In this document: positions 5,261-58,630 of the stretch, one piece after another | Layout of the letters: every line of letters starts with the position of its first letter | How positions within the stretch are numbered: position 1 is the stretch's first letter | Assembly (NCBI GenBank): GCA_028284465.1 | Contig: JANQRR010000021.1 | Coordinates: 34,876 to 98,875, forward strand | DNA length: 64,000 nucleotides | Origin: Gammaproteobacteria bacterium | GTDB lineage: Bacteria > Pseudomonadota > Gammaproteobacteria > JAJFKO01 | Reading direction: 5' to 3' | Notes under the pieces: model-generated | Seen by the model: the letters and a program-made list of their open reading frames with translations, nothing else | Databases searched by the model: none | What the model was told of the DNA's origin: nothing | Translations under genes and position numbers: made by a program

Positions 5261-5390
5261 TCGTCATCCCGATGACTCGAAGGAAACGAATACCATCATT
5301 GCGAAGAACTTTGTTCCGAAGCAATCCAGGATTTAACTTAGAAGTTTTCTGGATTGCTTCGTCATTGCACTCCTCGCAATGACGGACAGT
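5261..5390. repeat. palindromic intergenic repeat element, copy A (inverted pair of GTCATTGCGA(G/A)GA...CGAAGCAATCCAGA units)
   Basis: Left arm is cattgcgaagaactttgttccgaagcaatccagga. Right arm is tctggattgcttcgtcattgcactcctcgcaatgacgg, the reverse-complement unit. The element fills the tdh-stop to dnaE-start gap. Confidence 0.8.
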
Positions 5391-6416
5391 CTATTGCCAA
5401 TCCAAAATAACTTTACCTGATTTGCCTGAGCGCATTATAGCAAATGCTTGTTTATAATCATCTATTGGAAATGTATGCGTGATCACAGGACTAATATCTA
5501 AGCCACTTTGGATCATGCTGGCCATCTTGTACCAAGTCTCATACATTTCCCGGCCATATATTCCTTTAATAAACAAACCTTTCATGATCACTTGATTCCA
5601 ATCAATAGTGGTTTCTGCTGGCAAGAATCCAAGTAACGCGATATGGCCACCATGGATCATAGTTTCAATCATAGTATTAATCGCATTTGAGCTGCCTGAC
5701 ATTTCTAAGCCAACATCAAAACCCTCTTTGATCTTTAATTCTTTCATAACGGCGTTAATGTCAGTATTATTTACATTGATTGCACGGGTGGCACCAATTT
5801 TTTTTGCTAGAGATAACCGATAATCGTTAATGTCAGTAATCACTACATTACGTGCACCAACATGCTTAGCAATGGCTACTGCCATAATGCCAACTGGACC
5901 TGCGCCAGTAATTAATACATCTTCACCAACTAAATCAAAGGATAATGCGGTATGAGTAGCATTGCCTAACGGATCAAGAATAGCTGCTGTATCATCATTA
6001 ATTTCATCAGGTAGCAAAAACGCATTGAATGCTGGTAATTTGAGATATTCTGCGAAAGCGCCTGTACGCGTTACTCCAATACTTTGCGTGTTACGACATA
6101 AATGACGTTTGCCTGCACGGCAATTACGACAAAAGTGACAATTAATATGACCTTCACCTGAAACGCGATCACCAATGTTAAAACCTTTAACTTCATCACC
6201 CATCGCTTCAACGGTACCAACGAATTCGTGTCCTGTCGTCATTGGCACAGGGATGGTAGCTTGTGCCCATTCATCCCAATTAAAAATGTGGACATCAGTG
6301 CCACAGATAGCGGTTTTATGTATTTTAACTAATAGATCGTAGGGGCCAATTTCGGGGGCCGGTGCATCATACAAGCTGATCCCCATTTTTTTTTCAAGTT
6401 TACCTAAGGCTTTCAT
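5391..6416 (-). CDS. tdh: L-threonine 3-dehydrogenase
   Basis: [10 protein letters not shown]...[17 protein letters not shown] matches the Tdh N-terminus and Zn-ADH fold. I place the start at Met14 of the track ORF (ATG 6414-6416), 4 nt after the kbl stop, with a GGGAG SD upstream. Confidence 0.9.
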
Positions 6417-6420
6417 TAAA

Positions 6421-7608
6421 TTAGATAACTCCCAACTCACGACCAACTTTAGCAAATGCTGCTATAGCACGATCTAAATGTTGTTGTTCATGGGCAGCGG
6501 ACAACTGAACGCGGATCCTTGCTTGGTCTTTCGGTACCACTGGGTATGAAAAACCAATTACATAAATCCCTTCTTGCAGTAAATGATCGGCCATGACCGT
6601 TGCTAATTTCGCATCACCTAGCATTACGGGAATGATGGGGTGTTCACCTGGAATTAAATTGAAGCCAAGTTCGGTCATGCCTTTACGAAAATATTCACTA
6701 TTATAACGTAACTTCACTCGCAATTCATCAGAACCTTCTAATAAATCTAACACTTTTAATGATGTTGCGGTGATAACAGGTGCTAACGCATTGGAAAACA
6801 AATACGGTCGTGAACGTTGTCGCAGCCATTCGACAATTTCTTTACGGCCACTAGTATAACCGCCAGATGCACCACCAAGTGCTTTGCCTAATGTTCCCGT
6901 GATGATATCAACACGATCCATCACTCCACAATGTTCATGTGTACCTCGGCCTTTTTCGCCGACAAAACCTACTGCATGTGAATCATCAAACATTACTAAT
7001 GCATCGTATTTTTCAGCTAGATCACACACGCCTTTTAAATTCGCAATGATCCCATCCATTGAAAATACCCCATCGGTTGCAATGAGTTTAAAGCGACAGT
7101 CTTTGGCTTCTTGTAGTTTACGCTCTAAGTCAGCCATATCATTATTGGCGTAACGCAAACGTTTGGCTTTACATAAACGAATACCATCAATGATGCTGGC
7201 ATGATTTAAAGAGTCACTGATCACGGCATCTTGATCTGTTAATAACGTTTCAAATAAACCGCCATTAGCATCGAAACATGAAGAGTATAAAATCGTATCT
7301 TCCATTCCTAAGAATTGACTTAAGCGTTGTTCTAATTCTTTATGAGTATCCAATGTGCCGCAGATAAAACGTACTGAAGACATGCCATAACCACGTTCAT
7401 CGAGTGCATGTTTAGCGGCAGCGACAAGTTCAGGATGATTAGACAATCCTAAATAATTATTAGCACAAAAATTTATAACGTCTTCGCCACTGCGAACGTG
7501 AATTGATGCATTTTGTGGTGAGGTGATGATCCGCTCAGCTTTGTACAAGCCGGATTGTTTCAATTCTTCGGTTTCTTTAGCTAAATGATCTAGCAATGCA
7601 CTACGCAT
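6421..7608 (-). CDS. kbl: 2-amino-3-ketobutyrate CoA ligase (glycine C-acetyltransferase)
   Basis: PLP-dependent class II aminotransferase fold, Kbl-like along its full length. It forms the classic kbl-tdh operon arrangement. Confidence 0.9.
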
Positions 7609-7784
7609 GATTTTCTCCTGCAGTTTAGTAATATCTAAAGGATGGGGTGGCAGAAGGATATGCTAATTTGCATCAAGTTACAAGGATAAAGTGTGAATAA
7701 TGATATAATGAAAAAATTAAGTTACCTTTTTGATATATTTTTTAAAAATTGTCGTTTGTAGTAGCCTATTAATTCGAGTTATGC

Positions 7785-7812
7785 TGGATCCCGCGGTCAA
7801 GCCACGGGATGA
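7785..7812. repeat. module-2 hairpin of the repeat family (ggatcccgcggtcaagccacgggatga), solo copy D
   Basis: Same 9-bp stem and 5-nt loop hairpin as at 40767-40796 and 53134-53160. It has one stem substitution (cgcgg to ccacg). Confidence 0.7.
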
Positions 7813-7861
7813 GTACCTAGTTGGGTAAATAGATGACAGATTGCCAATATGGAAGTGAGCA

Positions 7862-56836: not shown

Positions 56837-56858
56837 TAGTGGAAAAGTGGGAGAATCA

Positions 56859-57854
56859 ATGAAAAAGCCTGTTAACGTTGCCGTTGTTGGAGCCACTGGT
56901 GTGGTTGGTACGGCCTTATTAGATATTTTAGCTAAACGCCAATTTCCTATAGGTACGCTATATCCTTTAGCAAGTCACCGCTCTGCAGGCAGTACGATTA
57001 GTTTCAAAGATCAAAAGATCGTGGTTGAAGATGTTGCTCAATTTGATTTTGCTAAAGTTGATATCGCTTGGTTCGTAACGCGACGATCGGTGGCTGCAGA
57101 TCATGTGCCGCTTGCTGCCGCTAAGGGCGCTATCGTTATCGATAATTCCTCGCAGTTTCGTTATGAAAATGATGTGCCATTAGTAGTTCCAGAAGTAAAT
57201 CCACAAGCAGCGAAACAGCCGCCACGCAATATTATTGCTAATCCTAATTGTTCAACGATTCAAATGGTTGTGGCATTAAAACCTATTTATGATGCTGTAG
57301 GTATTGAGCGGATAAATGTTGCGACTTATCAAGCGGTGTCCGGTAATGGTCGCACCGGGGTCGATGAATTAAGCCGTCAAGTTGATGAAATTGCTCATGG
57401 AAAAAAGCCAAGTTTAGAATTATATCCAACACCGATTGCATTTAATGTAGTGCCGCATATTGATGTCTTTCAAGAAAACGGTTATACTCGCGAAGAGATG
57501 AAAATGTTGTGGGAAACCCGCAAAATTTTTAATGATGATAACATAAAAGTAAATGCAACGACCGTACGCGTACCGGTTATGTATGGTCATTCCGAAGCAG
57601 TCCACATTGAAACACGTGATAAAATCACGCCACAACAGGCAATTGAATTATTGCGCAATGCCCCAGGCGTGAAAGTTTTTGCAGGTAATGATTATCCTAC
57701 TGCAGTAACACATGGTGCGGGAGCCGATCCGGTTTTTGTTGGCCGCATTCGTGAAGATATTTCACATCCTCGTGGTTTAAACTTATGGGTCGTTGCTGAT
57801 AATGTTCGCAAAGGTGCGGCATTAAACGCCGTGCAAATTGCAGAATTATTCTAA
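56859..57854 (+). CDS. asd: aspartate-semialdehyde dehydrogenase
   Basis: MKKPVNVAVVGATGVVG NAD(P) motif and the active-site Cys region (IANPNCSTI). Confidence 0.9.
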   Translation: MKKPVNVAVVGATGVVGTALLDILAKRQFPIGTLYPLASHRSAGSTISFKDQKIVVEDVAQFDFAKVDIAWFVTRRSVAADHVPLAAAKGAIVIDNSSQFRYENDVPLVVPEVNPQAAKQPPRNIIANPNCSTIQMVVALKPIYDAVGIERINVATYQAVSGNGRTGVDELSRQVDEIAHGKKPSLELYPTPIAFNVVPHIDVFQENGYTREEMKMLWETRKIFNDDNIKVNATTVRVPVMYGHSEAVHIETRDKITPQQAIELLRNAPGVKVFAGNDYPTAVTHGAGADPVFVGRIREDISHPRGLNLWVVADNVRKGAALNAVQIAELF

Positions 57855-57905
57855 GAGCCTAACAGCAAAAATGCAATTTAATAATAGGCTCTTAAGGTTT
57901 TCTTA
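57853..57905 (+). terminator. terminator-like hairpin after asd
   Basis: 8-bp stem AAGAGCCT/AGGCTCTT with a long loop, followed by AAGGTTTTCTT. Confidence 0.4.
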
Positions 57906-57953
57906 AGTTTTCATCAATAGTATTCTAATTTCATTAACAAAGAGGAAAAGCAA

Positions 57954-58439
57954 ATGAAAAAATCACTTTTAAAAATATCACTCTGTGCGGCACTTGCGTT
58001 AACTGTAAGTTCAGCGTTTGCATCTGTCACAAGCCTTAATAAGGCGAGTGCTAACAAATTGTTTGGATCAGTGAACCCACTACATCCAGTAAGAATGACA
58101 ACCACGCTGACGTTTCCTAAAACGCTTAGTGACATTACCTTAGCACAGACGAATGGTATTCATGCTTCTTTAAATGGCACAACGTTAACGTTGGATTATT
58201 ATGTAGGTCAACCCGTTACGTTGTTTATCACTGGAGTTCAACATGGTGGCGGCGCAAAGGATGGTGGATTAAGACAATGTCATTATACTATTACAACAAC
58301 TGAAGCTCAGCAAAACTATACTACGAATATTCAAGGCTATGTTGGTACAGCAGAGGCAAGAATTACAACTAGAACAATGTGTGGACCGAAACATCAAAAT
58401 GGTAATGACCCTAAACTGGAAGTTAGATATCTCGATTAA
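57954..58439 (+). CDS. hypothetical secreted protein (161 aa)
   Basis: Signal peptide (ALALTVSSAFA). The mature part is T/G-rich and beta-like. It lies between asd and truA. Confidence 0.5.
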   Translation: MKKSLLKISLCAALALTVSSAFASVTSLNKASANKLFGSVNPLHPVRMTTTLTFPKTLSDITLAQTNGIHASLNGTTLTLDYYVGQPVTLFITGVQHGGGAKDGGLRQCHYTITTTEAQQNYTTNIQGYVGTAEARITTRTMCGPKHQNGNDPKLEVRYLD

Positions 58440-58481
58440 ATTAATTTGCCTAAAGATGCGAATTAATGAATTTTAATCATC

Positions 58482-58630
58482 GTCATTGCGAGGACCCGAA
58501 GGGGACGAAGCAATCCAGAAACTGCAATGGGTTCCACAGCCAAACCATAGCATAGTATCTTTGGATTGTTTCGGAACAAAGTTCCTCGCAATGACAATAA
58601 ATGCACTCTGGACTAAAAGACGAAGTTATT
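58482..58630. repeat. palindromic intergenic repeat element, full copy G (same orientation as F; SD-like terminus mutated)
   Basis: unit gtcattgcgaggacccgaaggggacgaagcaatccaga; core aactgcaatgggttccacagccaaaccatagcatagtatct; inverted unit ttggattgtttcggaacaaagttcctcgcaatgac; flank aataaatgcactctggactaaaagacgaagttatt. Confidence 0.85.

Follow-up and report, generated by a model that had tools for sequence, protein, structure and literature searches.

A 64,000-nt stretch of a gammaproteobacterial genome (Gammaproteobacteria bacterium, lineage JAJFKO01; assembly GCA_028284465.1, contig JANQRR010000021.1, positions 34,876 to 98,875), hereafter the window, was predicted from its letters alone to carry a family of composite palindromic repeats at seven loci. 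We find that these loci probably (probability about 0.75) consist of palindromes of the CGTC-tagged superfamily of repetitive extragenic palindromes (REPs), arranged as singletons, as inverted dimers with their tails facing, and as small mosaics that resemble neisserial intergenic mosaic elements (NIMEs) and the bacterial interspersed mosaic elements (BIMEs) of E. coli. The identity of their architecture, their spread across phyla, covariation within their hairpins, a strand-asymmetric distribution of wobble pairs, their intergenic placement, and the lack of both target-site duplications (TSDs) and a linked transposase are demonstrated below.

Seven intergenic loci with REP-like palindromes

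Direct reading of the sequence confirmed all seven predicted loci, at their coordinates and with the modules ascribed to them, in numbers far above chance. The left half-site GTCATTGCGAGGA, allowing up to two mismatches, occurs in 12 copies where 1.28 are expected (0/100 shuffles reach 12), the right half-site CGAAGCAATCCAGA in 13 copies against 0.41 expected, and the module-2 hairpin in three copies against 0.00 expected. Coding sequence fills about 92% of the window, yet every one of the seven loci lies between genes, as had been claimed. A catalogue built from a pattern scan for GTCAT...ATCCAG units and a repeat finder contains five module-1 inverted dimers (5295-5383, 14027-14140, 40645-40730, 54203-54316 and 58482-58595), two hybrid dimers of modules 1 and 2 (40739-40793 and 53095-53161) and one module-2 singleton (7784-7813). 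In every dimer of the window the tails face each other and the heads point outward.

Modules 1 and 2 share a CGTC(AT) head and an (AT)CCAG tail. The module-1 unit, 30-37 nt long, reads (C/T)GTC-ATTGC-GAG-(variable apical hairpin)-GAA-GCAAT-CCAG, with the consensus form CGTCATTGCGAG-N-GAAGCAATCCAG, and its stem is bulged and two-tiered: a 5-bp ATTGC/GCAAT foot is followed by a purine-rich GAG/GAA internal loop and then by 2-5 apical pairs, closed by loops of 3-4 nt (TTT, GAAG, GTA or GAA). The apical hairpin takes several forms in the window: GAAC-TTT-GTTC, GACCC-GAAG-GGGAC/T, GAGT-GTA-ACGAC, GAGT-GCA-ATGAC and, in a short version, C-GCA-G. Module 2 reads CGTC-ATCCCGCGG-CTTGA-CCGCGGGAT-CCAG, with a 9-bp stem that opens with A-T and a 5-nt loop. 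A CGTC or TGTC head is present on 10/12 module-1 units and on the perfect module-2 copy of the window, and nearly all units end in a CCAG tail.

This anatomy can be compared with that of a described class. REPs were sorted into GTAG- and CGTC-tagged superfamilies by Di Nocera, De Gregorio and Rocco (BMC Genomics 2013; PMC3733652), and according to the text of that study a CGTC unit has an unpaired CGTC head (with TGTC and CCTC variants), a stem of 8-9 bp that almost always opens with A-T and whose first two pairs are A-T and T-A, a loop of 4-5 nt and an unpaired 3-nt CCA tail. The same text describes these units as mostly dimers, hetero- and hybrid dimers among them, with spacers of 20-100 bp, some of which are conserved; they sit between unidirectional or convergent open reading frames (ORFs) and have no associated transposase. 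Families CGTC-1 to CGTC-4 are distinguished, with members in five phyla and in Coxiella, and the superfamily includes Neisseria dRS3 (CGTC-1) and the Rickettsia palindromic elements RPE-4 (CGTC-4) and RPE-6 (CGTC-1) (PMC3733652).

Module 2 agrees with every feature that the text gives, from the head and the 9-bp stem to the 5-nt loop and the CCA tail, and it encodes VIPRLDRGI / LDPAVKPRDD, peptides of the same type as AIPRLDLGI/WIPWSNHGMT, which the supplement gives for CGTC-4 (PMC3733652). We consequently read it, on its sequence, as a known CGTC REP type. Module 1 shares the head, the A-T/T-A start of the stem, the CCA tail, the inverted-dimer arrangement and the location described in that text, and differs in its 5-bp foot, GAG/GAA internal loop, 2-5 apical pairs and 3-4 nt loop; it would be a bulged relative within the same CGTC superfamily, widespread in public genomes. 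The authors of the 2013 study themselves remarked that bulged CGTC members may have escaped detection (PMC3733652).

The description of the repeats as intergenic, non-coding, hairpin-forming elements like REPs, RPEs or miniature inverted-repeat transposable elements (MITEs) was borne out: they are REP-type palindromes, mostly inverted dimers, and the composites are built, as dimers and small mosaics, from units of a described class. The accompanying claim that no described element has this consensus does not survive comparison with the text of the 2013 study, given the fit of module 2 and the head, stem start, tail and dimers that module 1 shares, and the claim of novelty, which by its own terms hinged on the absence of a match to a well-characterised REP/ERIC-type family, is largely undone with it. 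What remains is mildly interesting: the module-1 consensus seems to be uncatalogued despite its near-identity across phyla. In the searchable literature its string returned only unrelated primer matches, and module 1 may represent an uncatalogued bulged CGTC family.

Folding, covariation and strand asymmetry

Single-stranded, each dimer folds as a single long hairpin; energies lie between -42 and -62 kcal/mol (z -7.6 to -9.6), and an internal bubble forms wherever the apical loops of the two arms differ. The dimer at 5295-5383 folds with -47 kcal/mol (z -9.6), that at 14027-14140 with -60.6 kcal/mol (z -8.6) and that at 54203-54316 with -62.4 kcal/mol (z -8.7). Compensatory substitutions in the spacer hairpins, which the original prediction had proposed as a check, were scored in 28 distinct 36-nt units against the structure ....(((((..(((((...)))))...)))))...., in which the foot helix was fixed by the search pattern itself and is hence uninformative. 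The covariation score of the apical stem was reached by 0/500 shuffles and collapsed in slid controls. Compensatory double changes number 8 and 3 at the two pairs that close the apical stem, while the next two positions are usually tandem G.A/A.G and become Watson-Crick pairs in five variants, that of the window included.

The two strands are not equivalent. Among distinct variants read on the CGTC strand (fixed register, 287 units), G.T wobbles and A.C mismatches stand at 16:3. A constraint acting at the level of the duplex would give the two in equal numbers, and the imbalance therefore points to selection on the hairpin of the 5'-CGTC...CCAG-3' strand. A single-stranded hairpin of this strand appears to be under selection, as single-stranded DNA (ssDNA) or RNA alike. 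As to the prediction that the elements are structured as RNA, selection on one strand's hairpin would suit RNA and ssDNA equally.

Distribution beyond the window

Searching other genomes with the unit, as had been advised, showed that it is not confined to the window. An exact-pattern scan for TCATTGCGAGGA-N8-12-CGAAGCAATCC, with one genome per species, found module 1 at at least 120 loci, in Bradyrhizobium and many other Alphaproteobacteria including Sphingomonadales, in some Gamma-, Beta- and Deltaproteobacteria, and in Rickettsiales, Verrucomicrobiota/Opitutaceae, Armatimonadetes and Bacteroidetes; a looser pattern found it on at least 120 viral contigs. Among the matches listed, nearly every unit forms the left arm in an inverted pair of the form CGTCATTGCGAGGA-gcgaagcga-CGAAGCAATCCAG, 15-30 nt, CTGGATTGCTTCG-cttcgc-TCGCAATGACG, and dimers are arranged with tails facing in 130 cases, heads facing in 4 and in tandem in 6. 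For 227 units among these matches, about 83% of the heads are CGTC and the remainder mostly TGTC, the tails are CCA in the large majority, and two length forms occur, a short one with a 6-nt insert and a long one with 12-14 nt.

A search that fixes only CATTGC...GCAAT reveals a gradation of variants up to perfect palindromes such as CGTCATTGCCGGGCTTGACCCGGCAATCCAT. One perfect palindrome, CGTCATTGCCGGG-CTTGA-CCCGGCAATCCAT, has the architecture of module 2 on the foot of module 1, further perfect-stem intermediates exist (for example ATTGCCGGG-CTTGA-CCCGGCAAT), and module-2-type units (CGTCATCCCGTGGCTTGACCACGGGATCCA) are also found in unrelated viral contigs. The repeats of the window thus represent the AT-rich-genome version of a pan-bacterial family rather than an invention of one lineage. 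Indeed, the ATTGCGAG...GAAGCAAT unit is among the most widely shared short non-coding sequences found across bacterial phyla, and it has no Rfam entry.

Three sets of related copies have features of their own. A metagenome scan for the exact AT-rich apical variant returned only six contigs (L244-L249, JGI), from organisms of about 54% GC; their TGTC-TTTGC...GCAA variant bears the exact apical hairpin of the window, GGAACTTTGTTCC, despite a very different base composition, which could reflect common ancestry, a transfer of this variant or convergence. In many alphaproteobacterial dimers a second conserved hairpin, gcggagcctgtcatcgggcggcgc...gcgccgacccgttggc, is nested in the apex of one arm, with nested-hairpin right arms at L006, L052, L060, L061, L079, L084, L105, L106 and L109, and is another layer of mosaicism. 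Viral contig IMGVR_UViG_3300035498_002011 (L185; 10.4 kb) carries ten module-1-type singletons (TGTCATTGCGAGGCATCGCCGAAGCAATCCCC) at 2399-10280, all on one strand, the one opposite to that of the long ORFs, and each inside a larger conserved repeat of its own. Neither this metagenome scan nor a protein search with an element-encoded ORF gave further copies from the source organism.

Proposed mobilisation by a trans-acting enzyme

If the repeats belong to the CGTC superfamily, a plausible mode of spread follows the analogy with REP/REPIN and IS200/IS605 systems: the single-stranded 5'-CGTC...CCAG-3' hairpin would be recognised by an enzyme that acts in trans and is encoded elsewhere, and the units would multiply or persist as non-autonomous selfish DNA, without TSDs. 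Inverted dimers may arise or persist since paired units form a long stable hairpin, and the bubbles of heterodimers may protect against hairpin nucleases, as is also suggested in the text of the 2013 study (PMC3733652). As a secondary effect, co-transcribed copies could act as RNA hairpins at 3' ends or between cistrons; most copies are probably co-transcribed, because they lie between co-directional or convergent genes. The flanks of six dimers contain no direct repeat, the tat...ata bases merely extending the palindrome, and no transposase domain was found in the window ORFs scanned.

Candidate enzymes were sought in the DNA that flanks such units in other genomes. For a link to the REP-associated tyrosine transposase (RAYT) or IS200, 2.1 Mb of REP-flanking DNA gave 0 matches to the Y1 transposase seeds used. 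A link to small GIY-YIG proteins (COG2827) was considered and rejected: a motif scan gave 0 in 0.95 Mb, and in 2.1 Mb a phmmer search from three seeds detected just two, each of them 2-4 kb away from any unit. When ORFs within 1-1.5 kb of the genome loci were clustered, no recurrent neighbour emerged and only common housekeeping families were seen; the same clustering on viral contigs gave apparent structural genes of phages or gene transfer agents only, an assignment made by inspecting their sequences. At loci L013 and L075, what lies between the paired copies looks, by eye, like ordinary metabolic genes.

A bolder and rather doubtful extension is that module 1 constitutes an uncatalogued, bulged "fifth" CGTC REP family, which would imply one widespread trans-acting protein that reads CGTC hairpins. 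If this reading is true, such a protein would follow from the conservation of the module-1 head, internal loop and tail together with the strand-asymmetric wobble; it might be a nuclease, a transposase or a host factor that has so far escaped recognition, and finding it would answer how CGTC REPs spread, a question open since 2013. A bulged, cross-phylum family with clear strand asymmetry is in any case a good handle for finding the CGTC REP enzyme by phylogenetic profiling.

Several points weigh against our assignment of the seven loci to CGTC-tagged REPs and against their mobility. To our knowledge, no mobilising enzyme has been described for any CGTC REP, and the selected single strand can be DNA or RNA, both of which fit. 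Mobility is putative: the AroC protein of the source organism is at most 74% identical to entries of the protein collection, which come from diverse Gammaproteobacteria, and a nearest relative this distant precludes a comparison of filled with empty sites. Short-read contigs of the source organism end inside the 40.6-, 54.2- and 58.5-kb elements, which marks these as repeats; the copies were counted within the 64-kb window only, however, and the window copies alone would explain the breaks. Module 1 lies outside the 8-9 bp stem and 4-5 nt loop given in the published text, and neither ATTGC strings nor the LAMT, ARND or SLRG peptides encoded by module 1 occur in the text or supplements of that study, its consensus figure lying outside the comparison (PMC3733652).

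Alternative explanations

The most serious competitor, which we regard as possible though tentative, is that the elements are primarily co-transcribed regulatory RNA hairpins (mRNA 3' stabilisers, attenuators or RNase sites) whose abundance reflects selection for that role. Six of the seven loci do lie between co-directional or convergent genes, several of them immediately behind a stop codon, their folds have high stability, and the one-strand excess of G.U over A.C is of the kind that RNA helices would tolerate; the text of the 2013 study argues for such a role for REPs in general (PMC3733652). The three full-length mosaics also share one orientation relative to transcription, with an extension that ends in the Shine-Dalgarno sequence of the next gene in 2/3, but a 3/3 agreement in orientation has a chance probability of 0.25. 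Moreover, inverted dimers put one unit of each orientation on any transcript, and the ten singletons of L185 lie on the strand opposite to that of the long ORFs, so that mRNA would carry the strand that is not selected. A terminator role, which the original prediction considered plausible, is contradicted by the absence of a U-tract for intrinsic termination: none was found after any hairpin, the sequences 3' of the hairpins being A-rich, and a scan detected no promoter-like or terminator-like site inside the elements (for terminators, the elements in 53000-59000), nor are terminator-like sites enriched. Rfam gave no match at gathering score over the window and, in permissive mode, only chance-level matches for one element and seven related loci. 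The patchy distribution among species, as described in the text of the 2013 study, also speaks against a general host function (PMC3733652).

Nor is it likely that the units are landing pads for IS110/IS1111-type transposases or phage integrases, kept or spread by recombination, even though relatives have such a part: dRS3 (CGTC-1) is the integration target of the filamentous phage Nf1 and has been proposed to mediate rearrangements (PMC3898611; text of PMC3733652), and the GTAG REPs of QMITE2 are targets of IS1111 in Coxiella (PMC5896051). In the window itself, the flipped core at 58519-58560 suggests that arms recombine or template-switch, but no insertion sequence (IS) or prophage is inserted in the window copies, no IS110-like gene is present in the window, and a role as target leaves the multiplication of the units unexplained. 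The size of the elements (about 90-150 bp), their inverted arms and their dispersed, intergenic copies would suit classical MITEs, that is, internally deleted DDE-type IS with terminal inverted repeats and TSDs. This origin is nonetheless very improbable: no direct repeats flank any copy, the tat/ata bases being palindrome extension, the arms are themselves self-complementary REP units that are also found singly, and neither the window nor 2.1 Mb of related loci contains a parent IS with these ends (GTCATTGCGAG...). A local segmental duplication or chance similarity confined to the window, which the identity of at least 90% among three mosaics over arms and extension might suggest, is refuted by the distribution elsewhere, with the unit at at least 120 genome loci and on at least 120 viral contigs of other phyla; flanking genes are unrelated at every locus, and shuffles never reach the observed counts. 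CRISPR repeats were rejected here as in the original prediction, the units being inverted and their spacing irregular.

Relation to known repeat systems

REPINs, reportedly introduced by Bertels and Rainey in 2011, are said to be GTAG-type REP doublets mobilised by a RAYT. Like the dimers described here, they consist of two inverted REPs and a spacer that form one long hairpin, lack TSDs, and have a strand-specific single-stranded hairpin as proposed substrate. They differ in their tag, which is GTAG as opposed to the CGTC/TGTC heads found here, and in their enzyme, since neither the window nor 2.1 Mb of REP-flanking DNA of other genomes yielded a RAYT. REPINs are described as vertically inherited and lineage-specific, whereas the unit described here is near-identical across phyla. 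The BIMEs of E. coli likewise combine REP subtypes in alternating orientation with conserved linker motifs, and are intergenic and co-transcribed; their Y and Z REPs are of GTAG-3 type and unrelated in sequence. We know of IHF and gyrase binding for E. coli BIMEs only. Rickettsia RPE-4 and RPE-6 have the same unit type as module 2 and, as is probably the case here too, intracellular bacteria as hosts, but RPEs are famous for in-frame insertion in genes, whereas all copies here are intergenic.

In NIMEs, dRS3 units bracket RS elements of 30-160 bp (PMC3898611). They resemble the loci of the window in that small CGTC-type palindromes bracket conserved segments in intergenic mosaics, with units that take part in recombination or rearrangement. 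Neisseria arrays extend over 200-2700 bp, however, as compared with about 150 bp, one core and few units per locus here; the segment bracketed in the window, its core, is a decayed REP unit in its own right, and no link to a phage or integrase was seen. Coxiella QMITE2, a MITE built around a GTAG REP (PMC5896051), is similarly a composite element (150-190 bp) that contains a REP, lies in 3' untranslated or intergenic regions and belongs to an intracellular host lineage. It has direct repeats of 7-11 nt and a GTAG REP, in contrast to the absence of direct repeats and the CGTC tag here.

Full-length mosaics

Three loci are full-length mosaics of about 150 bp: 13991-14140 (in reverse orientation), 54203-54352 and 58482-58631. 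By coordinate these are the third, sixth and seventh loci; the letters B, F and G that they had been given do not match this order. All three have a 42-nt core between unit a and unit b, followed by a 36-nt extension (...CTCTGGACTAAAAGACGAAGTTATTA) that ends in GTTATTAAGGAG, and in arms and extension they are at least 90% identical. The conserved core of about 40 nt that had been reported is real, with 33-36/42 positions identical among the three copies. In the 54.2-kb copy its likeness to module 2 exceeds that of all 2000 shuffles, and we take the core to be a decayed module-2 unit.

The core of the 58.5-kb copy is flipped relative to its arms and extension: when the 54.2-kb core is reverse-complemented, the two agree at 36/42 positions, as against 27/47 in direct orientation. 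This suggests that the core was inverted through recombination, or through a switch of template, between the 14-bp inverted segments CGAAGCAATCCAGA/TCTGGATTGCTTCG, and inverted arms would therefore interact in vivo in one of these two ways.

In the 54.2-kb mosaic, unit a (54203-54239, +) is followed by the decayed module-2-like core (54240-54281, +), unit b (54282-54316, -) and the extension (54317-54352, +), whose final base opens the AAGGAG Shine-Dalgarno sequence (54352-54357) of aroC, with its TTG start at 54363. The mosaic near 14 kb comprises, in ascending order, a 26-nt conserved part of the extension with 3 mismatches (13991-14016, -), unit b with GGAAC-TTT-GTTCC (14027-14061, +), the decayed module-2-like core (14062-14103, -), oriented relative to the arms as in the 54.2-kb copy and identical to its core at 33/42 positions, and unit a with GGACCC-GAAG-GGGAT and a TGTC head (14104-14140, -). 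Its extension runs into the Shine-Dalgarno sequence CTCCTT (13986-13991) of a 93-aa ORF (13977-13696, -), a protein with no Pfam match, and thus this mosaic too supplies the AAGGAG of the next gene. The third copy, composed of unit a (58482-58518, +), the flipped core (58519-58560, -), unit b with two substitutions (58561-58595, -) and the extension (58596-58631, +), lacks AGGAG, and the start of truA lies 170 nt beyond it.

Other loci and genomic context

The locus upstream of dnaE begins with a short CGTC-headed palindrome, CGTCATCCCGATGAC (5262-5276, +; read directly), possibly a truncated remnant of module 2. It is followed by a dimer with a 19-nt spacer, whose left arm is a module-1 unit with the degenerate head CATC and the apical hairpin GAAC-TTT-GTTC (5295-5329, +) and whose right arm is the module-1 unit GTCATTGCGAGGAGTGCAATGACGAAGCAATCCAG (5349-5383, -). 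The module-2 singleton (7784-7813, -) is a canonical CGTC-type REP with a 9-bp stem, a CTTGA loop and a degenerate head, and lies between divergent genes. Near 40.6 kb, a module-1 unit with the apical hairpin GT-GTA-AC (40645-40679, +) is paired with the short-form module-1 unit GTCATTGCGAGCGCAGCGAAGCAATCCAG (40702-40730, -), a form that is one of the versions recurring in other phyla. Next to this dimer stand the 3' half of a module-1 unit (40739-40761, +; detected by the repeat finder) and a perfect module-2 unit with CGTC head, 9-bp stem, CTTGA loop and CCAG tail (40764-40793, -). The repeat finder showed this second part (40739-40797) to be 92% identical to the hybrid-dimer region at 53095, where a module-1 unit with a TGTC head (53095-53129, +) stands tail to tail, with a 2-nt spacer, to a module-2 unit with 1 mismatch and a degenerate head (53132-53161, -).

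Flanking genes are unidirectional at five loci, convergent at one and divergent at one, and are ordinary chromosomal genes: dnaE, genes for an alcohol dehydrogenase, an aminotransferase, an RND pump and an FGE-type enzyme, vapC, djlA, prmB/C-like genes, aroC, asd and truA. On the reading preferred here, the loci would be ordinary REP-type repeats, of interest as markers that break assemblies and as possible modulators of neighbouring genes. The one apparent overlap with coding sequence is an artefact: the 1183-aa dnaE ORF has a listed TTG start inside the repeat and reads LLRNKVLRNDG..., whereas the conserved N-terminus of DnaE, MEPNFIHLRTHSEYS, begins at ATG 5234. Automatic annotation could thus wrongly extend dnaE into the REP (5235-5324).

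Some further observations concern the neighbourhood and the source organism. A gene for a PIN-domain (VapC-type) toxin (14263-14676, -) lies directly upstream of a mosaic, on the same strand. Four large ORFs have no Pfam domain (22612-26406, -, 1264 aa; 29649-31097, -, 482 aa; 41690-43711, -, 673 aa; 49630-53037, +, 1135 aa) and may encode lineage-specific secreted or effector proteins; GC content falls to 31% at 50-52 kb. A 306-aa protein (61885-62805, -) contains a eukaryote-type F-box domain (PF12937, E 1.3e-15). Such domains are characteristic of bacteria that live inside cells or in association with amoebae, among them Legionella and its relatives, and this protein suggests that the source organism is intracellular. 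Finally, a near-identical AroC, called as 581 aa, was found on a 2.3-kb contig that starts inside the same repeat (L123; JARCCX010165019.1, assembly GCA_029782595.1). Since its contig numbers exceed 165,000, this assembly is probably the genome of a eukaryotic host that contains this bacterium.

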